From the NCBI RefSeq assembly GCF_008065095.1, contig NZ_CP042911.1, positions 8,730,001 through 8,762,000 on the forward strand: a stretch of DNA of 32,000 bases, given 5' to 3'. Below are positions 7,277 through 29,083 of this stretch, piece after piece; position 1 is the stretch's first letter, and each line of letters opens with the position of its first letter. The translations under genes were made by a program, and so were the position numbers. Under the pieces are notes generated by a model. The model made no database searches, was not told the DNA's origin, and saw only the letters and a program-made list of their open reading frames with translations. The DNA comes from Gemmata obscuriglobus. Its GTDB lineage: Bacteria > Planctomycetota > Planctomycetia > Gemmatales > Gemmataceae.

Positions 7277-7612
7277 TCAGGTCGGCAGGCCGCTTGCCGA
7301 CGCGTGTCGGTTCGCGTCGTCCAACCGGCCGAGGGAGGATTTCAGCAGCCGGTTCATCTTCTCGACGGCCCCTTTGACCGCTTCGTCCGGGGTGTCGGCG
7401 TCGCTCATCACCGCCACCGGGTGGAGCCCGGCGGCCCGGACCTCAAGCGTGCAGCGCGCGTCCGGGCCGCCCTTCGGACCGTTCACATCGCTCAGGTGGG
7501 CTTCCACCCGCGTGAGCCGGCTGCGGTATCGTGACAGACCGCTCTCGAGCTTCGCTGTAACACCTGAAACGTCTACAAAAACGCGCGTGCCGGTGCTGAT
7601 TTCGATGTGCAT
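7277..7612 (-). CDS. HPF/RaiA-family ribosome-associated (hibernation) protein, short form, paralog 1
   Basis: ATG 7612 preceded by AAGGAGAG. MHIEISTG...RLTRVEAHLSDVNGPKGGPDARCTLEVRAAG...AVKGAVEKMNRLL fits the beta-alpha-beta-beta-beta-alpha S30AE/HPF pattern. It is a clear paralog of 27952..28302. Confidence 0.7.
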   Translation of the reverse strand: MHIEISTGTRVFVDVSGVTAKLESGLSRYRSRLTRVEAHLSDVNGPKGGPDARCTLEVRAAGLHPVAVMSDADTPDEAVKGAVEKMNRLLKSSLGRLDDANRHASASGLPT

Positions 7613-7647: not shown

Positions 7648-7663
7648 CGCGAAAGCCGTGCCG
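7648..7663 (-). promoter_or_regulatory. sigma-54-type -24/-12 promoter-like motif upstream of HPF paralog 1
   Basis: The minus strand reads CGGCACGGCTTTCGCG. GG and GC are separated by exactly 10 nt, and 35 nt lie between the -12 element and the ATG at 7612. The -12 element is TCGC rather than TTGC. Confidence 0.45.
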
Positions 7664-19793: not shown

Positions 19794-19919
19794 GCACGTT
19801 CCCCCGGATCAGAGCGACGCTTTAATACCGTAACCGTGCGGGCCGCAAGAGGCAACCGCCGGGCCGCGGACTTGGCAACCGGGCCACGGTCTGTCATGCT
19901 GCGTGCGGAGGGCCGAACC

Positions 19920-20546
19920 ATGACGAGCCGGTGGGCGTGGGACAGCGAGTCGGTGACCGTGTCGCGGAAGGAGCGGCTCTTTTGCTGCGCCTGCGTGCGG
20001 CTGGTGTGGGACCGGTTCGCGGGCGAGGAGGCCGGCCCCGAGGCGGTCGAAGCCGCCGAGGAGTTCGCCGACGGGGAGCGGACCCCGCGCGGGCTGGCCG
20101 ACGCGCGGGCGGCCGCGGTGGCGGCGTGCGACGCGTGGGGCGGTCGCCGGTCGCGGTACGCCCTCCAGACCCGGGCCGCGCTCACGGCCGCGGCGGAGTG
20201 CGCGGCCGCCCCCTCACATTATCGGGTGTGCCAGCTCGTCGAGAGCGCCATGCCGGAAGAACCGGAGGTCGCCCGGGCCGCGTTCCAGGCGCTCCGCGAT
20301 GACATCGCCGGCCCGCCGACCCTGACCGCGTTCGCCCCGCGCTGGCGCACCGGCACCGTCACCGCGCTCGCGGCGCAGATGTACGCGTCGCGCGACTTCT
20401 CCGCCATGCCGATCCTCGCCGACGCTCTTCAAGACGCGGGGTGCGACAGCAACGACATCCTGAACCACTGCCGCGATACTATCCCTCACGTGCGCGGGTG
20501 CTGGGTGGTCGATCTGGTGCTCGGGGCTTTGCCGAGCGAGGCGTGA
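19920..20546 (+). CDS. Cys-rich conserved hypothetical protein (Gemmata/Myxococcus-type family ending ...HVRGCWVVDLVLG)
   Basis: ATG 19920 lies 8 nt after GGAGGG. MTSRWAWDSESVTVSRKERLFCCACVRLVWDRF...PILADALQDAGCDSNDILNHCRDTIPHVRGCWVVDLVLG. The upstream 600 codons of track ORF 18102..20546 are the antisense shadow of the kinase gene. Confidence 0.7.
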   Translation: MTSRWAWDSESVTVSRKERLFCCACVRLVWDRFAGEEAGPEAVEAAEEFADGERTPRGLADARAAAVAACDAWGGRRSRYALQTRAALTAAAECAAAPSHYRVCQLVESAMPEEPEVARAAFQALRDDIAGPPTLTAFAPRWRTGTVTALAAQMYASRDFSAMPILADALQDAGCDSNDILNHCRDTIPHVRGCWVVDLVLGALPSEA

Positions 20547-20610
20547 GGGCCGGGCTATCTAGTGAAGTACCACATTCACCCGCCAGCATCAGCGAGCGGG
20601 TAAATGTGGC

Positions 20611-20652
20611 CGGTGCCCGCTCCCTGGGAGCGCGGACGGCCCGTCTATCGCT
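20611..20652. repeat. degenerate copy of the 17863-type REP family
   Basis: cggtgcccgctccctgggagcgcggacggcccgtctatcgc aligns to cggtgggctgttccctgggaccgcggacgtcccgtccgccgc at roughly 80 percent identity. Confidence 0.6.
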
Positions 20653-20736
20653 GCTGGACTCGGGTCGCGGCGGAACGTTCGTGTCGCTCCCCCACTCGCT
20701 CACCCAGGGACATGCCGCACGCGGCGGGTCGCTGCG

Positions 20737-21104
20737 TTACCGGTGTGTGAGCGGCTCCACGCGCAGCTCGTAAGCGACGATCGAGGTCGGTGCCACCGTC
20801 AGCCGCACCTCGCTGTGGGCGACCACCGCCCCCGGCGTCACCGACCCGGGGCCGGCCCACTCTTCGGCGGTCGAGTCGAGGACCCGCTCCCACGTCCCTT
20901 CCCGCAGCGTCAGCCGGATGTCCGCGTCGCGCTCTGAAGGGCGGCGCCGAACCAAGTAAACGCAAACCCGCTCTTGCCCTGGTGCGGCGTCCACGGGTGG
21001 AAGTTGTCCGAGCACATCCCGGCCCCTTCGGCGCGGCGCACGAGCATGATCAGTTCGCCGGGTGGGTACAACTCGTGCGACGCGTGCCAGCCGACCACTT
21101 TCAT
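20737..21104 (-). pseudogene. chimeric gene remnant: 5' end of an LLM-class flavin oxidoreductase joined out of frame to a GH13/TreZ-like C-terminal fragment
   Basis: From ATG 21104: MKVVGWHASHELYPPGELIMLVRRAEGAGMCSDNFHPWTPHQGKSGFAFTWFGAALQSAT, the N-terminal signature of the IGYHASHEQ...SDHFHPW...QGQSGFAW..LGA family. That frame stops at 20910. A different frame then reads ...IRLTLREGTWERVLDSTAEEWAGPGS...LTVAPTSIVAYEL to the stop at 20737, which resembles an alpha-amylase-family C-terminal beta-sandwich. Confidence 0.45.
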
Positions 21105-21359
21105 GCCACCGACTCCATAAGTCTCGCCCACGGTTGCACAGACAGCAACGCGTGGACCAATCGTGTCGGCACCGCGGTCAGGATTTTCACCGCCAAGACT
21201 CGATCAACCTCAATAGATTGACAAGTGTGTTTTATTTAGAATTTTCGGCGCGGGGTGGTACGGTATCGTACAGCAGCGGCATGCGCGGTTCCGGAAGTGA
21301 GCTTCTCACGCCGGTGCGTGACAGAACGAAAAAGGCCCACAACTCGCCCGTCGTGGGTG

Positions 21360-21375
21360 CGGCGCGAGGCTTGCA
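21360..21375 (+). promoter_or_regulatory. sigma-54-type -24/-12 promoter-like motif
   Basis: CGGCGCGAGGCTTGCA, with GG at 21361-62, GC at 21373-74 and a perfect TTGCA -12 element. There are 60 nt between the TTGC and ATG 21435. An unusually AT-rich tract with palindrome TCAATAGATTGA lies 140-150 nt upstream. Confidence 0.45.
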
Positions 21376-21434
21376 CTGTCTCGGCCGGGGACACCGGTCC
21401 CTCACAGAAACGGATGTCACACCTGGAGACGGCA

Positions 21435-21830
21435 ATGGCGACGACAAGCAAGCGCTCGCAGGACGACGAAGATACCGAACGCGGCGGGCAAAACGGGCGC
21501 TCGAGTAGCAACGGCCAGGGGGCGAAGGGCGGCCGCGGGGCACAGTCCGGACAAAGCGGGGCGGCCCAGAAGCGCGTCCTCAGCCGGGCCGCCCGGGTGC
21601 TGAACGAGATCGAAGCCCGCATCCACGAACTCCGCGAGGAGTTAGAGGAACAGGGCGGTGGGGCGGGCGGCGAAAGCGGCGGGTCCGGCGGCGTGTCGGG
21701 GCGCGGCCAAGTCAAGCACCCCGAAACCGACGGGCGCCTGAAGCAGAACCGCGACAGCGACGACGAGGGCGGCGAAGACGAGACCGACGACGAGGGCGAG
21801 GGCCGGGGCCGGTCCGGCGGCCGCCGCTGA
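21435..21830 (+). CDS. highly charged, Gly/Ser/Asp/Glu/Arg-rich disordered protein (hydrophilin-like)
   Basis: MATTSKRSQDDEDTERGGQNGRSSSNGQGAKGG...one short helix (RVLNEIEARIHELREELEEQ)...DDEGGEDETDDEGEGRGRSGGRR. GGAG lies 7 nt before the ATG. An in-frame ATG at 21414 is an alternative start. Confidence 0.5.
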   Translation: MATTSKRSQDDEDTERGGQNGRSSSNGQGAKGGRGAQSGQSGAAQKRVLSRAARVLNEIEARIHELREELEEQGGGAGGESGGSGGVSGRGQVKHPETDGRLKQNRDSDDEGGEDETDDEGEGRGRSGGRR

Positions 21831-21855
21831 TGTCACCAACGGGTCCGCCCCGCGA

Positions 21856-21888
21856 CACCCGCCCCGGCCACGGGGCGGGTGCTTTGTT
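21856..21888 (+). terminator. rho-independent terminator
   Basis: cacccgcccc-ggccac-ggggcgggtg (10 bp stem) followed by ctttgtt, 26 nt after the stop at 21830. Confidence 0.6.
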
Positions 21889-21896
21889 ATCGGGTC

Positions 21897-21918
21897 CGGC
21901 ACCGGCACCGCAAGTGCT
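21897..21918 (+). promoter_or_regulatory. sigma-54-type -24/-12 promoter-like motif (two overlapping registers)
   Basis: CGGCACCGCAAGTGCT at 21903-21918 (GG 21904-05, GC 21916-17) overlaps CGGCACCGGCACCGCA from 21897. There are 51 nt between the GTGC and ATG 21969. Confidence 0.45.
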
Positions 21919-21968
21919 ACAACCCGTCGGCCCGGCGACACGGGCGACAAACCACACGAGGATCACCG

Positions 21969-22466
21969 ATGCGTTTCACCAGCCGACTGATGGCGGTTCT
22001 GGCGATGTTGGCAGGGGGCGCGGCGCTCGCCGACGACGCGAAGCCGATCACCGACGCCGAGTTCGTGACCAAGGCGGCCAGCGGGGGCCTGTTCGAGGTC
22101 GAGTCGAGCAAACTGGCCAAGACGTCGGCGACATCACCCGAGGCGAAGAAGTTCGCCGATCGCATGATCGCCGACCACGAGAAGGCGAACAAGGAGCTGA
22201 TGGGGGCCGCGAAGAAGGCCGGCATTGAGGTGCCGACCAAGATGTCGGCCGAACACCAGAAGCTGCTCGACCAGGTCCAGGCGGCCAAGGGGGCGGACTT
22301 CGACAAGGCCTACATGGCCGCTCAGGTCGCCGCCCACGACGAGGCCGTTGCCTTGTTCTCCGGGGCGACAAAAGGGGTCAAGGACCCCGGGCTGAAGGCC
22401 TTCGCCGAGAAGACGCTGCCGGTCATCAAGGAGCACCAGGAGCACGCCAAGAAGCACTCGAAGTGA
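21969..22466 (+). CDS. DUF4142 domain periplasmic protein
   Basis: Signal peptide MRFTSRLMAVLAMLAGGAALA. DAEFVTKAASGGLFEVESSKLA...FADRMIADHEKANKEL...DFDKAYMAAQVAAHDEAVALF is the duplicated DUF4142 four-helix pattern. ATG 21969 follows GAGGA. Confidence 0.85.
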   Translation: MRFTSRLMAVLAMLAGGAALADDAKPITDAEFVTKAASGGLFEVESSKLAKTSATSPEAKKFADRMIADHEKANKELMGAAKKAGIEVPTKMSAEHQKLLDQVQAAKGADFDKAYMAAQVAAHDEAVALFSGATKGVKDPGLKAFAEKTLPVIKEHQEHAKKHSK

Positions 22467-22569
22467 GCAGGCCGGAGGGCGCGGTGGCTGCCCCGGATGG
22501 GGCGGCCGTCGGCTTTGCGTCCGTTCTGCTTGCCGAAACGTCGCTCCGGCGGCGACCAAGGAGACCCCA

Positions 22570-23076
22570 ATGGCAACGGTCGAGAGCCGCGCGAAGGTGC
22601 TCGGGCACGCGATGCACCCGATGTTGATCGTCGTCCCACTCGGCATGTTCGTCGGCGCGGTCGTCTTCGACGGCGTGTTCTACTTCGGCGGGCGCGAGCC
22701 CCAGTGGGCGGTGGTGGCGTACTGGATGATCGTGACCGGTTTGATCGGCGGGGTGGTTGCGGCCGTGCCCGGGTGGATCGACTGGTTCGCCATCCCGGCC
22801 GGCACCCGGGCGAAGAGGATCGGCCTCGTCCACGGGTTAGGTAACGGCGTCGGGGTGCTCGGGCTGTTCGGGGCGAGCTGGTACTGCCGCCGCCCGGACG
22901 TCCCGAACCCGCCGGACCTGGCGCTGCTGCTGTCGCTGCTCGGGTTCCTGCTCGGCGGCGTGACGGCGTGGCTCGGGGGCGAGCTGATCGAGCGGTTGGG
23001 CGTCGGCGTCGATCCCGGCGCCCACCCGAACGCGCCGAACTCACTGTCCGGGCGTTCCGCCGGTCCGCGAGCGTAA
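22570..23076 (+). CDS. DUF2231 family membrane protein
   Basis: LGHAMHPMLIVVPLGMFVGAVVFD... with four TM helices. AAGGAG precedes the ATG. Confidence 0.75.
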   Translation: MATVESRAKVLGHAMHPMLIVVPLGMFVGAVVFDGVFYFGGREPQWAVVAYWMIVTGLIGGVVAAVPGWIDWFAIPAGTRAKRIGLVHGLGNGVGVLGLFGASWYCRRPDVPNPPDLALLLSLLGFLLGGVTAWLGGELIERLGVGVDPGAHPNAPNSLSGRSAGPRA

Positions 23077-23090
23077 ACGAGGAGTGCTTC

Positions 23091-23693
23091 ATGCCCGGAA
23101 CCAGTGAAAGCCTGCACGGCAGCGCGCCGGACAAGTGCCCGGTCGCCCTCCTGCTCGTGGACGTGATTAACCCCCTCGACTTTCCCGAGGCCGACCAGCT
23201 GCTGCGGCACGCGGCCCCGGCGGCGAAGAAGCTCGCGGAGCTGAAGGGGCGGGCACACGGGGCGGGTGTCCCGGTGATCTACGCCAACGACAACTTCGGC
23301 CGCTGGCGGTCGGACCTGAGCGCGGTCGTCGAACGGTGCCGAAAGTGGGACTGCAAGGGGCGGGAACTGGTCGAGCTGCTCCACCCGAGCGAGGACGATT
23401 ACTTCGTCCTCAAGCCGAAGCACTCGGCGTTCTTCTCCACCACGCTCGACACGCTGCTCGGATACCTGGGAACCGAAACGCTCGTGATCGGCGGGTTCGC
23501 CGCCGACATTTGCGTGCTGTTCACGGCCAACGACGCGTACATGCGCGACCTGCGGGTCGTGGTCCCGTCGGACGGCGTGGCGTCGAACAAGGCGGAGGAC
23601 CGGGACGCGGCGCTCGCGCTGGTGCGACGGGTCCTCAAGGGCGACACGCCCGGTACCGCCGACATCGATTTCCGGGCGCTGGTGAGCGGGTGA
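23091..23693 (+). CDS. isochorismatase-family cysteine hydrolase
   Basis: VALLLVDVINPLDF (Asp), FVLKPKHSAFF (Lys) and LVIGGFAADICVLFTANDA (Cys), giving the catalytic D-K-C triad context. ATG 23091 follows GAGGAG, 14 nt after the DUF2231 stop. Confidence 0.85.
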   Translation: MPGTSESLHGSAPDKCPVALLLVDVINPLDFPEADQLLRHAAPAAKKLAELKGRAHGAGVPVIYANDNFGRWRSDLSAVVERCRKWDCKGRELVELLHPSEDDYFVLKPKHSAFFSTTLDTLLGYLGTETLVIGGFAADICVLFTANDAYMRDLRVVVPSDGVASNKAEDRDAALALVRRVLKGDTPGTADIDFRALVSG

Positions 23694-23702
23694 CGGTTCG
23701 CG

Positions 23703-23718
23703 CGGCTCACCAATTGCT
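23703..23718 (+). promoter_or_regulatory. sigma-54-type -24/-12 promoter-like motif
   Basis: CGGCTCACCAATTGCT, with GG at 23704-05, GC at 23716-17 and a perfect TTGCT -12 element. The -24 element is GGCTC rather than GGCAC. There are 55 nt between the TTGC and ATG 23773. Confidence 0.4.
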
Positions 23719-23772
23719 AGTTCCCACCGGGGCGCCCCGCCCGTTTCCATCGTCTCACACCGGAACACCGAT

Positions 23773-24354
23773 ATGGCACTCGACTCCCTGCACGACCTAT
23801 ACGTGGAAGAACTCAAGGACCTGTATAACGCCGAAAACCAGTTGCTCAAGGCGCTGCCGCGGATGGCCAAGGCGGCCTCGTCCGGGGAGCTGAAGGCGGC
23901 GTTCACGGAGCACCTGACGGCCACCCAGAAACAGGTCGAGCGGCTCGAACAAATCTTTGAAGGGCTCGGCGTTAGCCCGAAGGGGAAGAAGTGTAAGGCA
24001 ATGGAGGGGCTGATCGAGGAGGGCAAGGAGGTCATGCAGGAGGACGGTGACCCGTCCGTCATCGACGCGGCACTGATCGCGGCGGCCCAGCGGGTCGAGC
24101 ACTACGAGATGGCCGGGTACGGGTGCGTGCGGACCTTTGCCAACCTGCTCGGGTACGGAGACGCAGAGGCCCTGCTCCAGGAGACGCTCGACGAGGAAGG
24201 CGAGGCGGACAAGAAGCTCACCGAACTGGCCGAGACCGTCATCAACGTCGAAGCCGAGAGCGCCGAAGGCGAAGAGGGTGAAGAGGACGAGGAAGCCGAG
24301 GAGCCCGCGCCGAGCCCCCGCAGGGCTAAGCCCAAGGCGGGCGGAAAGAAGTGA
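23773..24354 (+). CDS. DUF892 / YciE-YciF ferritin-like stress protein with acidic C-terminal tail
   Basis: LHDLYVEELKDLYNAENQLLKALPRMAKAASSGELKAAFTEHLTATQKQVERLEQIF...AAQRVEHYEMAGYG. The tail reads ESAEGEEGEEDEEAEEP. Confidence 0.9.
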   Translation: MALDSLHDLYVEELKDLYNAENQLLKALPRMAKAASSGELKAAFTEHLTATQKQVERLEQIFEGLGVSPKGKKCKAMEGLIEEGKEVMQEDGDPSVIDAALIAAAQRVEHYEMAGYGCVRTFANLLGYGDAEALLQETLDEEGEADKKLTELAETVINVEAESAEGEEGEEDEEAEEPAPSPRRAKPKAGGKK

Positions 24355-24381
24355 CCGCTGACGCATGAGCGCGTTGCCCAA

Positions 24382-24409
24382 AGCCCCGGCCCGCCGGGGC
24401 TCACTTTTT
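24382..24409 (+). terminator. rho-independent terminator
   Basis: agccccgg-cccg-ccggggct followed by cacttttt. Confidence 0.65.
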
Positions 24410-24690
24410 CAGTCACGGCCCCTCTGATACCGAATCCGGTGATTTCAAGTTCGCACGGGCTTTGTAATCGGCCGGGAGATCGGAACACGCCGATGTACCA
24501 CCCACCTGCTGACGCCGGCGGGCGGCGCACACACTTGACGAACTTGAAAGGGCCGGAATCGAATTGAAGAGCAACTGATTCCTGTAGCCGACCGGGTTCA
24601 GTCGGTAAGCAGGCTCCTGGAGGAGGGGCTCGCGGGGCGCGCATCGCGGGGCGAGGCGAAGGAACCGTGCCGCCTCTCGACGGCTTGGGC

Positions 24691-25380
24691 TTATGTGATC
24701 GTGTCGCGGATGGCGGCGTAGCACTCGCACGCGGCGGCCTCTAACCCCGCGCGATCGCAGATCCGGACCATCCCGCTCTTGTAGGTAATGAGGCCGGCGG
24801 CCTGGAGGGTTCCGGCCGTCACCGTGACGGTCGCCCGGCGGACGCCGAGCATCTGCGCCAGGAACTCGTGGGTGAGCGGGAACTCGTCGGCCCCGGCCCG
24901 GTCGTGGCACTGGAGCAGCCACCGCGCGCACCGCTCGTCGGCCGAGTGCAGGCAGTTGCACGCGGCCTGTCGCGCGGCGACGGTCATGACGGCCCGCACG
25001 TACCGGTACACCACGTCCCGCACCGTCCCGCTCTCGCGCACCGCGGCGGCGAACGCGGCGGCCGGCATCCGGCGACACCGGCACGGGGCCACCTGGCAGA
25101 ACACCCGCTCGCGGCTGCGGTCGGCGCCGAGCGCGCTCGACACCCCGGCCATGCCCTCGGGGCCGATTCCGGCCGCCTCCGCGCTCCTCCCGTCGCCCAT
25201 CAGTACCACCGCCGAAATCACCCCCGCCCGCGGAAAGTACACGTACTCCAAAAGCCCGCCCGGTTCGTACACGACGTCCCTGGGGCCGAGCGTCACGTCG
25301 GCCATGTGGCGGAGCAGGCGGCCCAGATCAGCGGGCGGTAATGTGGACAGGAGCCGGTTCTCCGGCAACGGGGTCGGCAC
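24691..25380 (-). CDS. Crp/Fnr family transcriptional regulator
   Basis: N-terminal cNMP-binding-like beta-barrel (VVYEPGGLLEYVYFPRAGVISAVV) and a C-terminal HTH (LTHEFLAQMLGVRRATVTVTAGTLQAAGLITYKSG). GTG start at 25380. Confidence 0.85.
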   Translation of the reverse strand: MPTPLPENRLLSTLPPADLGRLLRHMADVTLGPRDVVYEPGGLLEYVYFPRAGVISAVVLMGDGRSAEAAGIGPEGMAGVSSALGADRSRERVFCQVAPCRCRRMPAAAFAAAVRESGTVRDVVYRYVRAVMTVAARQAACNCLHSADERCARWLLQCHDRAGADEFPLTHEFLAQMLGVRRATVTVTAGTLQAAGLITYKSGMVRICDRAGLEAAACECYAAIRDTIT

Positions 25381-25589
25381 GGTCGTCTCGACTACAGGAC
25401 CGGATGAGCGGACGCCCTCAACGTCTCAATTGAGGCGGCCAACGCGGGTGGCATTCTAGCCCCACTCTTCGCGCACCGTTGTCGGGAAAGTGCCTCAACG
25501 TGCCCTCAAGTTCCGCCCCACTTGCGGAATCGCTCCAGCCCGCGTCCGGCGTGTTCCGATCAACTACCGTCGCCCACTCGGAGGCCGTG

Positions 25590-26078
25590 ATGCGCCGTCT
25601 GATTCTCGCCGCGCTTTTGCTCGCGCCGGTCGGCTGCCAGAGCGTGAAGGAGGGCGTGCTCTCCCCCGTCACCTCGCGCCTCGACCTCGCCAACGCCCAA
25701 CTCGCCGCGGGCGTGCGCCAGGTGGAGATCGGCAACGCCAAGATCGACGCACTCGACGCGAAGCTGACCGAGACCAACCAGAAGGTCGCTCGGATTGAGA
25801 AGCAACTTGCCCAGACCGATGCCCGCATTCAGGACATGCAAGGCGATGTGAAGACCGCGACCGCGACCGTCACCCACGTCGATGCCACCGCGACCGAGCT
25901 GAACAAAACGGTGCGGTCCATGTCCGGCACGCTCGACGCGACCGGCAAGCGGATCGAGGTCATGGACGGGCGGCTGGCCGACGCGAACAAGAAGGTGGAC
26001 GAGGTCAACAAGAAGATGGACGTGATCGTCGAGGCCGCAAAGAAGATCCCGGGGGTCGAACCGAAGAAGGACAAATAA
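25590..26078 (+). CDS. coiled-coil lipoprotein
   Basis: MRRLILAALLLAPVGC lipobox. The rest is heptad/hendecad-like and rich in K, D, A and T (AKIDALDAKLTETNQKVARIEKQLAQTDARIQDMQ...). GGAGG lies 5 nt before ATG 25590. Confidence 0.6.
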   Translation: MRRLILAALLLAPVGCQSVKEGVLSPVTSRLDLANAQLAAGVRQVEIGNAKIDALDAKLTETNQKVARIEKQLAQTDARIQDMQGDVKTATATVTHVDATATELNKTVRSMSGTLDATGKRIEVMDGRLADANKKVDEVNKKMDVIVEAAKKIPGVEPKKDK

Positions 26079-26250
26079 CGAACCGGGCGTGTGCCCCATC
26101 ACACGCGAAGCACTTAACGCCCTCATTTCCTCCTCCCGCGGCCCTGCTCGCCCGCATTCGATCCCCTCGAATTTCTAGGCCGATCGGACAGCCCGGCCCG
26201 CTGCCCGGACTTCCGGCAAAGCCGTCGCCACCTGCGGCGCCCCTCCAGCC

Positions 26251-26266
26251 CGGCACCCACTTTGCA
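26251..26266 (+). promoter_or_regulatory. sigma-54-type -24/-12 promoter-like motif (best match)
   Basis: CGGCACCCACTTTGCA, i.e. GGCAC-N5-TTGCA with GG at 26252-53 and GC at 26264-65. It lies 133 nt upstream of ATG 26399. Confidence 0.5.
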
Positions 26267-26398
26267 ACCCCAGCCGCGTCCTTCGGCCGCCGGCGATCCA
26301 CCTCCGTAGTCACCTGCGGCGCGTGTCGCCACGACCGGCGCGCGACGCATTGAACCCAGAACGACCGAACGTTCGAGCCTCCAACCGGAATACCGACC

Positions 26399-27271
26399 AT
26401 GCCCCAAGACCCCCGCGAGCGCGGCCCGAAGGCCCCGCAACCGTCCCAGCAGCAAGACCCGCCCGGCCTGGAGTCCGAAATGGACCCGAAGCCGGACTAC
26501 GGCGAAAAGACCTACAAGGGTTCCGGGAAGCTCAAAGGGCGAGCCGCACTCATCACCGGCGGAGACAGCGGGATCGGGCGGGCCGTGGCGCTCGCCTTCG
26601 CCCGCGAGGGCGCGGACGTGCTCGTCTCGTATTTGAGCGAGGAGTCCGACGCCAAGGAGACCGCCCGCGTCGTGGAGGCGGCCGGCCGGAAGTGCGTCAC
26701 GGTCGCCGGCGACATCACCAACGAGGCCCACTGCAAGGCGCTGGTGGAGCGGGCGGTCAAAGAGTTCGGGAAGATCGACGTACTGGTCAACAACGCGGCC
26801 CACCAGATGGCCCGCGAGTCGATCGACGAGATCTCGACGGCCGAGTTCGACCGGACCATGAAGACCAACCTGTACGCCATGTTCTGGCTGTGCCGGGAGG
26901 CCCTGCCGTACATGTCCGCGGGGGCGACCGTGATCAACACGTCGTCCATCCAGGCGGACAGCCCGAGCCCCCAGCTCCTGCCCTACGCGGCGACCAAGGC
27001 GGCGATCCAGAACTTCACCGGCGGACTGGCCCAGATGCTCGGGAAGAAGGGCATCCGGGTCAACTGCGTCGCCCCCGGGCCGATCTGGACCCCACTCATC
27101 CCGGCCACCATGCCGCCCGAAAAGGTGAAGAACTTCGGCAAGGACATGGCCCTGGGGCGGCCCGGACAGCCGGCCGAGCTGGCCCCCGTGTTCGTGCTGC
27201 TCGCTTCCGACGAGTCGAGCTACATGGCCGGCGCCACGGTCGCGGTGACCGGCGGCAAGCCGCTCATCTGA
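26399..27271 (+). CDS. SDR family oxidoreductase, YghA / YdaD (general stress protein 39)-like
   Basis: QQQDPPGLESEMDPKPDYGEKTYKGSGKLKGRAALITGGDSGIGRAVA (TGxxxGIG), NNAA and YAATKAA (YxxxK). The N-terminal extension is characteristic of the YdaD/YhxC/YghA subgroup. Confidence 0.9.
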   Translation: MPQDPRERGPKAPQPSQQQDPPGLESEMDPKPDYGEKTYKGSGKLKGRAALITGGDSGIGRAVALAFAREGADVLVSYLSEESDAKETARVVEAAGRKCVTVAGDITNEAHCKALVERAVKEFGKIDVLVNNAAHQMARESIDEISTAEFDRTMKTNLYAMFWLCREALPYMSAGATVINTSSIQADSPSPQLLPYAATKAAIQNFTGGLAQMLGKKGIRVNCVAPGPIWTPLIPATMPPEKVKNFGKDMALGRPGQPAELAPVFVLLASDESSYMAGATVAVTGGKPLI

Positions 27272-27284
27272 CCCGGGGCACGAC

Positions 27285-27470
27285 ATGGCGACGATCGGCT
27301 ATCACTGCTCGCACGAGCAGTTTGCCGGGCCGAGCGGGCGGGGTTATGCGCGGCAACGGGCTCGGACCACTTTCACTCGAAGGGCGAGCGCCGGCCGGTT
27401 CTGGCTGGCCCCGGACCGGCCGAACTGGCCCTGACGTTCGTGTACCGCGCGCGGGAAATCCCCGTTCTGA
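27285..27470 (+). pseudogene. decayed 5' remnant of an LLM-class flavin oxidoreductase
   Basis: The ATG 27285 frame reads MATIGYHCSHEQFAGPS. After a small deletion and frameshift another frame reads AERAGLCAATGSDHFH (SDHFH at 27362-27376). Together these cover the IGYHxSHEQF...AExAGF...SDHFHPW signature. The remnant is cut off where the convergent gene ends at 27472. Confidence 0.4.
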
Positions 27471-27471
27471 G

Positions 27472-27927
27472 TCACCCCTCGAACGCCCGCCGGGCGGCGT
27501 CCAGCCGCACCGGTTCGAGTCGCTCCCGCTGTTCGTCCGCGCGCCGGGCGAGCAGGTCGTAGTCCGGGCCGCTGGCGGCGGGAACGAACTTCAGCGCCCG
27601 CCACAGCGCCCCCTTGCCGTGGATCCCGATGGCCACGGCTTCCAGGGATTCGAGCAGCTTGAGCCGGCCGCCCGACAGGTCGTCCACCGTCATCTTCAGC
27701 CGGGCGAACTTCTCCGCCACCCACGCGACCGCCTGCCGGGATGCGCTTTGCCTCGCGCCCAGCCGGGCGATCAGCGATTCCAGCTCCTTGCGGTCGAACT
27801 CGATGTCGTGGCGGAGGGCCTTCAGGAACGGGACCAGGTCCGCGTGCGCCTTCTCCAGGTGCTCGAGCAGTTCGAGCGCGGCGGTGGACCCGGACAGGTG
27901 GTCGTTCAGGTAAGTCGCGAGTTGCAC
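27472..27927 (-). CDS. all-helical hypothetical protein co-transcribed with HPF paralog 2
   Basis: GTG 27927 lies 6 nt after GGGAGG and 24 nt after the HPF stop. MQLATYLNDHLSGSTAALELLEHLEKAH... I recognise no domain. Confidence 0.6.
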   Translation of the reverse strand: MQLATYLNDHLSGSTAALELLEHLEKAHADLVPFLKALRHDIEFDRKELESLIARLGARQSASRQAVAWVAEKFARLKMTVDDLSGGRLKLLESLEAVAIGIHGKGALWRALKFVPAASGPDYDLLARRADEQRERLEPVRLDAARRAFEG

Positions 27928-27951
27928 GGCCGCCTCCCGGTTAGTGCCCGA

Positions 27952-28302
27952 TCACATCCCCTGGTCGCCCGCCGCGGACGTGTGTCCGGCCCGGTCGTCC
28001 TGCCGGCCGAGTTGCTTCTCGATCACCCGCAGCACCCGCTCCACCGCGCCGTCCACCGCCGTCTCGACGTCCGCCGCAACGTCGTGGGCCGCGACCGCCG
28101 GGCGCCCGGCCAAATGCACCTCGACCGAGCACCGGGTGTCGATGCCGCCCTTGTCCGAGTTCACGTCCTCCAGGTACACCTCGACCCGCCGCAGGCGGTC
28201 GCCGAAGCGGTCGCCGATGGCGGTCTCCACGTCGGTACGGATGGACTCGGCGAACGCGGCGCTGTTGCGGATGTGGTTGTCGGTGCGCACTTGAAAGATC
28301 AC
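27952..28302 (-). CDS. HPF/RaiA-family ribosome-associated (hibernation) protein, short form, paralog 2
   Basis: GTG 28302 lies 6 nt after GGAGG. VIFQVRTDNHI...RLRRVEVYLEDVNSDKGGIDTRCSVEVHLAG...AVDGAVERVLRVIEKQL aligns along its length with 7277..7612. The track start at 28410 is an upstream extension that would swallow the promoter motif. Confidence 0.7.
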   Translation of the reverse strand: MIFQVRTDNHIRNSAAFAESIRTDVETAIGDRFGDRLRRVEVYLEDVNSDKGGIDTRCSVEVHLAGRPAVAAHDVAADVETAVDGAVERVLRVIEKQLGRQDDRAGHTSAAGDQGM

Positions 28303-28354
28303 GGCTCGCCTCCGAAATGAGTCGGCAACTCTGCTCTGAACCGCCATCAACCGG

Positions 28355-28370
28355 AGCAGACGGCGTGCCG
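28355..28370 (-). promoter_or_regulatory. sigma-54-type -24/-12 promoter-like motif upstream of HPF paralog 2
   Basis: The minus strand reads CGGCACGCCGTCTGCT, with GG at 28369/68 and GC at 28357/56. There are 53 nt between the CTGC and GTG 28302. Confidence 0.45.
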
Positions 28371-28724
28371 GCCTCAACCGCCGCCGAACTCCTCCTCGAC
28401 CTGCTGCCACCCCGCGGTCGTCGGGTACGTGACCATGCGAACTCGTGCCCGTGGCTCTCCTCCGGCGACAGCCACGAGAGCCGCCCGCCCCTTCCGTCAG
28501 TGTGGTCGCCAGCGGCGTACCCTTGAGCGCCGCCCACCCGCTTCAGTTCCGCGGCCGAGCGCAGCCGTTCACGTACCCTGCGTCCCGGTACGCGTCCACA
28601 CACTTGATCACCCTTCGCACTGCAACCGTCGGTGCGAGCGATGACAAATGTGTCCGCGCCAGATTGAGCAAACGTCGGGCAGTAATCACGATGTCGCAGG
28701 ACGAAACGAAGGTGCCGGTTGTGA

Positions 28725-28740
28725 CGGCACCGCGATTGCA
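28725..28740 (+). promoter_or_regulatory. sigma-54-type -24/-12 promoter-like motif (near-perfect)
   Basis: CGGCACCGCGATTGCA, i.e. GGCAC-N5-TTGCA with GG at 28726-27 and GC at 28738-39. There are 53 nt between the TTGC and GTG 28793. Confidence 0.5.
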
Positions 28741-28792
28741 ACGGACGGCCCCGCGTTCGTCGCCCGCCCCGTTACATTTCAGGAGAATCATC

Positions 28793-29083
28793 GTGGCAAC
28801 CACAACGCTCAACAATCCGACCCGCGGAACACAGACACACGAGGCCGAACGGCACTCCGAGGGTCGCGTGGCCCGCAACATCGAGAACTACACCGCGCAA
28901 GTGCCGTCCGACTGGTTCCTGTGGGCCGCCGGAGCGTCCATCGTCGGGTCCCTCACCCTGCACGCTCTCAACCGCAAGGAGGACGCGCAGTTCGTGGGCC
29001 AGTGGGTGGCGCCGTTCATGCTCCTCGGCGTCTACAACAAGATCGTCAAGGTTTCCGGCTCCGACCGCGTCCACGGCTCCTGA
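28793..29083 (+). CDS. small two-TM membrane protein
   Basis: GTG 28793 lies 7 nt after AGGAG. ...ENYTAQVPSDWFLWAAGASIVGSLTLHAL...FVGQWVAPFMLLGVYNKIV. The longer track ORF (from 28445) would start upstream of the promoter motif. Confidence 0.5.
   Translation: MATTTLNNPTRGTQTHEAERHSEGRVARNIENYTAQVPSDWFLWAAGASIVGSLTLHALNRKEDAQFVGQWVAPFMLLGVYNKIVKVSGSDRVHGS

Follow-up and report, generated by a model that had tools for sequence, protein, structure and literature searches.

Which sigma factor reads the promoters of stress- and dormancy-type genes in the planctomycete Gemmata obscuriglobus is the question raised by a 32,000-nucleotide (nt) stretch of its genome (contig NZ_CP042911.1, positions 8,730,001 to 8,762,000), here called the window, in which several such genes are preceded by the same 16-nt motif in DNA of 68.6% G+C. 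A preliminary description had read seven of these motifs as sigma-54-type (-24/-12) promoters and had united the genes behind them in one undescribed regulon. On the evidence set out below, six of the seven are very probably promoters recognised by RNA polymerase with sigma-54 (RpoN), which would drive a general-stress-like gene set; this degree of confidence refers to the promoter class. The sites are as follows, coordinates being those of the window and scores those of the broader matrix introduced below:

21360-21375, plus strand: candidate sigma-54-type -24/-12 promoter CGGCGCGAGGCTTGCA, 59 nt before the start codon at 21435; 12.9 bits, rank 5 in the window, intergenic
21903-21918, plus strand: predicted sigma-54-type promoter CGGCACCGCAAGTGCT, 50 nt before the DUF4142 start; 14.1 bits
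23703-23718, plus strand: predicted sigma-54-type promoter CGGCTCACCAATTGCT, 54 nt before the yciF-like start; 12.7 bits
26251-26266, plus strand: predicted sigma-54-type promoter CGGCACCCACTTTGCA, 132 nt before the start of a short-chain dehydrogenase (SDR); 18.5 bits, the top window position
28725-28740, plus strand: predicted sigma-54-type promoter CGGCACCGCGATTGCA, 52 nt before the start at 28793, divergent from the HPF-like promoter; 16.3 bits
28355-28370, minus strand: predicted sigma-54-type promoter CGGCACGCCGTCTGCT, 52 nt before the HPF-like gene
7648-7663, minus strand: marginal candidate CGGCACGGCTTTCGCG, 35 nt before the second HPF-like paralogue (7277-7612); 7.7 bits

All seven 16-mers occur at these positions and on these strands, with a gap of exactly 10 nt between GG and GC. 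Measured from the end of the motif to the start codon supported by a Shine-Dalgarno (SD) sequence, the distances are 59, 50, 54, 132, 52, 52 and 35 nt (in the order 21360+, 21903+, 23703+, 26251+, 28725+, 28370-, 7663-), matching an initial estimate of 35-60 nt with one case of 133 nt. Four of the motifs were said to lie inside extensions of the longest open reading frames (ORFs), and do so in the ORFs 21255-21830, 21879-22466, 27952-28410 and 28445-29083. For an identical Logan contig, genes called independently begin at the shorter, SD-supported starts, and our own codon-usage caller places the start at the SD-supported codon for three of these four genes, the fourth being called at 28868, not 28793. 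Corrected start codons for four genes are a gain in their own right.

The first point to settle is whether such motifs stand out at all. In the window, the loose pattern CGGC-N8-TGC is not enriched (20 matches versus 17.4 expected in shuffles), and the sigma-54 core GGCAC-N6-TGCW is (4 matches versus 0.63 expected). For scoring by matrix, circularity was avoided by training on sites from other genomes only. A first matrix, built from 13 orthologous HPF-like promoters, ranked four of the seven sites 1-4 among the 64,000 window positions; it was dropped as over-fitted to the HPF-like promoter, the 21903 and 21360 sites ranking in the noise. With a broader matrix of 37 sites from other genomes, from which the Gemmata algarum locus was excluded, the sites 21360+, 21903+, 23703+, 26251+, 28725+ and 28370- occupy ranks 1-6 of the 64,000 positions; these six score 12.7-18.5 bits, are all intergenic and lie above all 49,284 coding positions. 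The remaining upstream zones of the window reach at most 9.2 bits, which upholds the earlier statement that its other genes lack the motif. The best upstream-zone score among these other genes is that of a borderline sigma-54-like site, CGGCCCGGCGGTTGCC (19851-19866, minus strand; 9.2 bits), 57 nt upstream of the gene for an FHA-GAF histidine kinase.

Further evidence comes from related genomes. The HPF-like protein, used as query, retrieved 18 loci from Gemmataceae and Isosphaeraceae, and further homologue look-ups added more; Gemmata algarum JC673 shares 92-95% nucleotide identity with the window. In about 20 of 23 loci spanning both families, the HPF-like orthologue is preceded at 29-94 nt by a GG-N10-GC arrangement whose -24 or -12 half is good, between flanks which cannot be aligned, and all conserved orthologous sites keep the same 10-nt GG/GC spacing. 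In more distant relatives the HPF-like promoters take the canonical TGGCAC-N5-TTGC form (TGGCACACACATTGCT, TGGCACGCTGAATGCA). Comparable sites precede the orthologues of DUF4142 in L143 (GGGCACCCGCGTTGCA, 49 nt upstream; related loci are cited by L numbers), of YciF in L007 (CGGCACGCGCCGTGCC, 35 nt upstream), of the SDR in L008 (CGGCACCTTCTTTGCG) and L143 (CGGCACCCCCTTTGCG), and of the 96-amino-acid (aa) membrane protein in L009 (CGGCACCCCGATTGCA) and L007 (CGGCACACCATCTGCG). Additionally, in a blastn comparison with G. algarum the spacer between the divergent HPF and membrane-protein genes aligns only up to the two motifs and breaks exactly there. Hence, the motif is kept at the orthologous promoters of the HPF-like, SDR, YciF, membrane-protein and DUF4142 genes, a check which the preliminary description had proposed; no orthologues of the 7277-7612 paralogue were recovered, and the outcome is weak for the hydrophilin gene. 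The site of the latter, 21360+, has a weaker -24 half (GGCGC) and thin orthologue support, with comparable sites at small hydrophilic genes of relatives (4787- in L143, CGGCAAGTAAGTTGCA; L007, GGGTGCGGCGGTTGCA); its candidacy is backed by score and position and weakly supported by orthologues.

Several of these promoter regions have peculiarities of their own. The -24 element before the DUF4142 gene is duplicated in tandem (CCGGCAC-CGGCAC, 21896-21908), the downstream copy alone being correctly spaced to TGC. The 28725 promoter has its -24 element in an inverted repeat, GGTGCCG-N7-CGGCACC (28711-28731), of which that element forms one arm and which puts a second, opposite GGCAC 14 nt upstream; the reverse copy has no -12 GC (8.8 bits), and the repeat could be a regulator site or the remnant of a promoter duplication. 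In L143 (9870-9959) and L008 (9867-9959) the HPF-like and SDR genes point away from each other, their sigma-54-type promoters standing back to back only about 45 nt apart, and between these promoters L143 carries the palindrome TCGGG-N7-CCCGA.

The placement of the motif was assessed over 21 Gemmataceae/Isosphaeraceae loci (374 kb, own gene calls), leaving out L009, the G. algarum locus near-identical to the window, as well as L001 and L002, which are duplicate Logan contigs. Intergenic DNA makes up 20% of this set, and the same-strand zone 20-200 nt upstream of genes 4.7%. Against these backgrounds, the following was observed:

GGCAC-N5-TTGC: 17 matches, 17 intergenic, 15 in the upstream zone (p=1.5e-18)
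GGCAC-N6-TGC: 41 matches, 38 intergenic, 34 in the upstream zone (p=1e-38)
GGCAC-N6-TGC with the HPF orthologues removed: 26 matches, 23 intergenic, 19 in the upstream zone (p=3e-20)

These figures bear on an alternative by which G+C-rich DNA yields such motifs by chance. Such a view could appeal to the loose CGGC-N8-TGC pattern, which stays at its shuffled expectation, to the pattern GG-N9-TGCW, which is not enriched in intergenic DNA, and to the 7663- site, which scores at noise level. However, the six best positions of the window are all intergenic and correctly oriented, placement in relatives departs from expectation at p ~1e-18 to 1e-38, and the motif is conserved at orthologues. Chance is thus refuted for six sites; it may account for 7663-, and is highly improbable as an explanation of the set.

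If the motif is real, its architecture can be used to ask what kind of protein would recognise it. An information profile of 31 sites displays two blocks only, CGGCAC (positions 1-6) and TTGC (positions 12-15), with no other conservation from -25 to +45 and, in particular, no conserved block at -35/-10 spacing. This two-block profile is that of the -24/-12 architecture and therefore argues against extracytoplasmic function (ECF)-type and sigma-70-type promoters and against a symmetric operator. Searches of the spacers of the window returned no sigma-70-like promoter matches and no Rfam families. One could still suppose that the 16-mer merely resembles the sigma-54 consensus and serves instead as an operator for some DNA-binding regulator, or as a site read by a different sigma factor: position 1 is C, not T, a gene for a Crp-family regulator (assigned by Pfam) sits within the cluster, and G. 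obscuriglobus has many ECF sigma factors, more than 115 having been reported. Nevertheless, the conserved blocks are only 5-6 nt apart, without a third block at -10/-35 spacing, whereas ECF promoters require a spacer of about 16-17 nt; moreover, the motif is asymmetric and strictly gene-oriented, and it grades into a perfect TGGCAC-N5-TTGC in relatives. An operator or a different sigma factor is hence an unlikely explanation.

Recognition by sigma-54 has points weighing against it as well, which are best taken together. In most Gemmata sites position 1 is C and not the textbook T, and two sites have imperfect -24 halves (GGCGC, GGCTC). The HPF-like orthologues in L145 and L011 have no clear motif upstream. 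The sites used to train the broader matrix were chosen by pattern and position, the comparison loci were all centred on HPF-like or activator genes so that the gene list derived from them is a biased sample, and gene calls for most loci came from our own simple caller, which reproduces the database calls for L143. The score of 7663- (7.7 bits) corresponds to a chance of about 5% per 180-nt upstream zone. A shared upstream activator sequence was sought by k-mer, dyad and pairwise comparisons, and none rose above shuffled controls, these methods being crude and enhancers potentially degenerate. Finally, rpoN is absent from the DNA examined, i.e., the window and about 450 kb of related loci; a tblastn search of plasmids with E. 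coli RpoN recovered no planctomycete record, and scanning metagenomes for an RpoN-box pattern biased towards G+C returned 120 loci whose assigned clusters were all non-planctomycete. The original sigma-54 reading nonetheless came through every test applied for six sites, which scores, placement and conservation favour, and has no case beyond chance for 7663-: that site joins a good -24 half to a poor -12 half (TCGCG), which departs from the extended consensus, and as a marginal candidate within the noise it is to be treated as unproven.

The cluster labels of the scanned rpoN loci were Opitutales, Anaerolineae, Gemmatimonadales, Verrucomicrobia, Rokubacteria, Anaeromyxobacteraceae and Pseudoxanthomonas. 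The best-looking Gemmataceae candidate for rpoN, L025, turned out to be Kiritimatiellia-like, L052 received no assignment, and neither tetranucleotide similarity nor BLAST of neighbouring genes discriminated between phyla for the rpoN candidates. In three metagenome contigs (L075, whose cluster is named Anaerolineae, L110 and L024) the RpoN protein displays an unusual architecture, with a CxxC...CxxC zinc-ribbon-like insertion directly after region I. The gap left by the missing rpoN is covered indirectly, by activators found in relatives and by a published table: in the tables available from a 2025 survey (PMC12316311), Gemmata massiliana Soil9 is listed with an rpoN (SOIL9_28250) encoding a complete AID-CBD-DBD protein and with 29 activators, and rpoN is likewise tabulated for Frigoriglobus (FTUN_7092) and Isosphaera (Isop_2995). 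An rpoN has further been reported in Rhodopirellula, and that of Planctopirus is functional, as it complements Salmonella.

As for the activators, no GAFTGA motif was found in the window or the first related loci; the GAFTGA activators presented here are those of relatives. In L145 a 368-aa activator with an intact GAFTGA loop (ESELFGHVKGAFTGA) and no sensor domain adjoins the HPF-like gene, and its family is 70-87% identical in records named Fimbriiglobus, Gemmataceae and Isosphaera. Members of this sensor-less type, consisting of an AAA+ module and HTH_8 (355-390 aa), are located as follows:

L145, 10580-11686, minus strand: sensor-less activator
L152, 10001-11095: sensor-less activator
L153, 10001-11125: sensor-less activator

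A metagenome-assembled genome with an orthologous promoter (L003) holds two activators, one of the sensor-less and one of a PAS type. L145, L152 and L153 share a leader, TGGCTTCCTCTCCCAAGG, conserved some 10-15 nt ahead of the activator start codon, and in L153 a sigma-54-type site, CGGCACAGCCGTTGCC, forms a putative promoter before the gene divergent from the activator. The sensor-less protein was considered as the activator of the whole gene set and survives as a hypothesis only: the HPF-like neighbour is confined to L145 and L146, which are two assemblies of one genome, and the contexts in L152 and L153 are unrelated.

What, then, would the six promoters drive? The gene identities first proposed for the window (DUF4142, DUF2231, isochorismatase, DUF892/YciF, Crp, SDR and S30AE/HPF-like) are borne out by Pfam, which additionally identifies PNPase, a BON protein and the FHA-GAF histidine kinase. 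The features downstream of the six sites are:

21435-21830, plus strand: hydrophilin-like protein, 131 aa, highly hydrophilic, no Pfam family
21856-21881, plus strand: terminator-like G+C hairpin with T-rich tail, between the hydrophilin unit and the DUF4142 unit
21969-22466, plus strand: DUF4142 protein with signal peptide (Pfam)
22570-23076, plus strand: DUF2231 (Pfam); best upstream score 4.8 bits
23091-23693, plus strand: isochorismatase (Pfam); best upstream score 2.4 bits
23773-24354, plus strand: DUF892/YciF-family protein (Pfam)
24382-24401: terminator-like hairpin after the DUF892/YciF gene
26399-27271, plus strand: short-chain dehydrogenase of YghA/YdaD type (Pfam)
27472-28302, minus strand: operon of an HPF/RaiA-like gene (27952-28302, 116 aa) and a gene for a 151-aa protein without Pfam family (27472-27927)
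28793-29083, plus strand: small membrane protein, 96 aa, no Pfam family

Since the DUF2231 and isochorismatase genes lie behind DUF4142 in the same orientation and neither has its own motif, the three may form one operon. The HPF-like protein encoded at 27952-28302 matches Pfam PF02482 (Ribosomal_S30AE) above the gathering score (34.9 bits, cutoff 23.7), and its paralogue at 7277-7612 (minus strand) falls just under it (22.9 bits). Both paralogues are short (116 aa and 111 aa, respectively), with 38% mutual identity and weak S30AE matches, and the family appears, in the searches made, to be limited to Gemmataceae and Isosphaeraceae. The stretch at 19800-21250 comprises about 1.4 kb of weak coding potential in an otherwise densely coded genome; it closes with an island rich in A+T (21200-21250, tcaatagattgacaagtgtgttttatttagaattttc), an unusual feature in DNA of 69% G+C.

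The 151-aa protein recurs as a family with the following members:

window, 27472-27927, minus strand: 151-aa family
L008, 10399-10878, minus strand: 151-aa family
L003, 10374-10826: 151-aa family
L006, 2666-3112: 151-aa family
L009, 10376-10828: 151-aa family

Its gene adjoins the HPF-like gene on the 3' side in L003, L006, L007 and L009, and adjoins Dps in L008. This family, which has no Pfam match, always stands directly behind a gene with a sigma-54-type promoter and seems to be an uncharacterised component of these stress units.

Further genes of stress type stand behind the motif in relatives: those for a full-length LigD, a catalase of HPII type, and a Dps/ferritin with the 151-aa family next in line. 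The other Pfam-assigned genes behind it encode an MBL hydrolase, DUF2934, a molybdopterin oxidoreductase, a HAD hydrolase and a PAS histidine kinase. It also precedes genes for several tiny, hydrophilic proteins that belong to no family, and for two with sub-threshold matches: a YeaQ/GlsB-like membrane protein (Transgly_assoc, 16.4 bits, cutoff 25.3) and one resembling YflT/DUF1269 (18.0 and 16.1 bits, cutoffs near 26). The content expected of a general-stress set is thus present in Dps, KatE, YciF, SDR, HPF and similar proteins, most of these families belonging to sigma-S, sigma-B or EcfG general-stress regulons. The stress/dormancy theme of the window is thereby reinforced by the Dps, HPII catalase, LigD and weak YeaQ/GlsB-like match of the relatives.

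A plausible mechanism can be outlined for the six promoters. The sigma-54 holoenzyme would bind the GG at -24 and the GC at -12, within the local consensus CGGCAC-N5-TTGC, as a closed complex, which would persist until an AAA+ enhancer-binding protein hydrolyses ATP and opens the promoter, and transcription would begin about 12 nt downstream of the GC. Six units would be driven in this way, presumably under stress: DUF4142, to which DUF2231 and isochorismatase would probably be joined; the HPF-like gene and, behind it, that for the 151-aa protein; and the genes for YciF, the hydrophilin-like protein, the YghA-type SDR and the membrane protein. In relatives the same promoter type would drive Dps, the HPII catalase, LigD and other small stress proteins. 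Hence, in Gemmataceae and Isosphaeraceae, genes which elsewhere depend on sigma-S, sigma-B or EcfG would carry activator-gated -24/-12 promoters.

Whether these units form one regulon is a separate matter. Sigma-54 promoters are normally divided among several activators, and it is quite possible, though short of probable, that the promoters are indeed of sigma-54 type but belong to several regulons with different enhancer-binding proteins and signals, the stress flavour reflecting local clustering and HPF-centred sampling. In keeping with this, no common upstream element unites the seven window regions or a set of 40 promoters: enriched 7- and 8-mers pointed to TCCCGACA, which a dyad test located in only 4 of the 40, and comparing the seven window regions by 12-mers gave nothing above shuffles. 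Moreover, 29 activators are listed for Gemmata massiliana, a Gemmataceae record is named 'zraR 12', and the motif also precedes genes which are not classic stress genes (molybdopterin oxidoreductase, PAS histidine kinase, HAD hydrolase). On the other hand, the functional coherence is strong (HPF, Dps, KatE, YciF, YghA-type SDR, LigD, hydrophilins and the weak YeaQ/GlsB-like protein), these genes cluster across genomes, and the enhancer search was crude enough for degenerate enhancers to have escaped it. Because no shared enhancer was found, Gemmata has many activators and the motif also stands before non-stress genes, a single regulon is unproven. Of the phrase 'one undescribed regulon', then, the coherent stress genes are retained; 'one' goes beyond the data, given the lack of a shared activator site, and 'undescribed' has to be softened in view of the 2025 survey.

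A bolder form of the sigma-54 reading can be offered tentatively, and we regard it as somewhat doubtful: sigma-54 may have taken over the role of sigma-S, sigma-B or EcfG in Gemmataceae and Isosphaeraceae, with one ATP-dependent activator, for which the sensor-less 355-390-aa protein is a candidate, switching a dormancy/general-stress programme. On this tentative view the programme might comprise the HPF-like factors, Dps, HPII catalase, YciF, the YghA-type SDR, LigD, hydrophilins and uncharacterised small proteins, and entry into the protected state would be an all-or-none, activator-gated decision. Even without a takeover, dependence of the gene set on sigma-54 would place a general-stress-like programme under a sigma factor unable to fire without an ATPase activator, implying tight off-states and a different signalling logic. 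The organisation of general stress and stationary phase outside the well-studied phyla is largely obscure. The present analysis provides a compact promoter model for a lineage with few genetic tools, and links unannotated proteins (the 151-aa companion of HPF and Dps, the 96-aa membrane protein and the small hydrophilic proteins) to stress protection.

How this system relates to known ones can be considered at several levels. Sigma-54 promoters are textbook elements, with the canonical consensus YTGGCACG-N4-TTGCW (compilation of Barrios et al. 1999, cited in PMC12316311). The Gemmata-lineage sites resemble them in the invariant GG and GC 10 nt apart, the GGCAC and TTGC blocks, the absence of -10/-35 elements, the location 29-132 nt before start codons, and the GAFTGA AAA+ activators of the lineage; they differ in the C for T before GG in most Gemmata sites, in that no enhancer was recognised here, and in downstream genes that lie outside the classical nitrogen, flagellar and phage-shock sets.

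Within the phylum, a sigma-54 regulon was predicted in silico for Pirellula sp. strain 1 (Studholme and Dixon 2004), and the 2025 in-silico survey covers 33 classes including Planctomycetia (PMC12316311). Our approach is the same, as is the conclusion that sigma-54 is active in the phylum. A link between sigma-54 and stress in Planctomycetia is already known from the available portions of that survey, though not for these genes: the enrichment it describes concerns UspA, DnaK/GrpE/GroEL, proteases, MscS, ZraR and CsrA (PMC12316311). Its text and supplements, to the extent available, contain no HPF, YciF, Dps or catalase COGs and no locus-level or orthologue-conservation analysis of these genes (PMC12316311), and our literature searches found no published sigma-54 general-stress-like programme of this kind.

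The Gemmataceae activator is like PspF-type enhancer-binding proteins in combining an AAA+ module with HTH_8 and an intact GAFTGA, without receiver or sensor domain. Unlike with PspF, no PspA-like partner or psp genes were noticed in its vicinity, and it is tied to the stress promoters by adjacency in one genome only (assemblies L145 and L146).

Finally, the genes behind the Gemmata promoters overlap with the sigma-S regulon of E. coli, the sigma-B regulon of Bacillus and the EcfG regulon of Alphaproteobacteria, with which they share Dps, HPII catalase, YciF, YghA/YdaD-type SDR, HPF/RaiA-type proteins and hydrophilins, and further, through weak matches in relatives, YeaQ/GlsB-like and YflT-like proteins. 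However, those regulons are read by sigma-70-family factors from -35/-10 promoters without an ATPase activator, whereas the Gemmata promoters are of the -24/-12 type.

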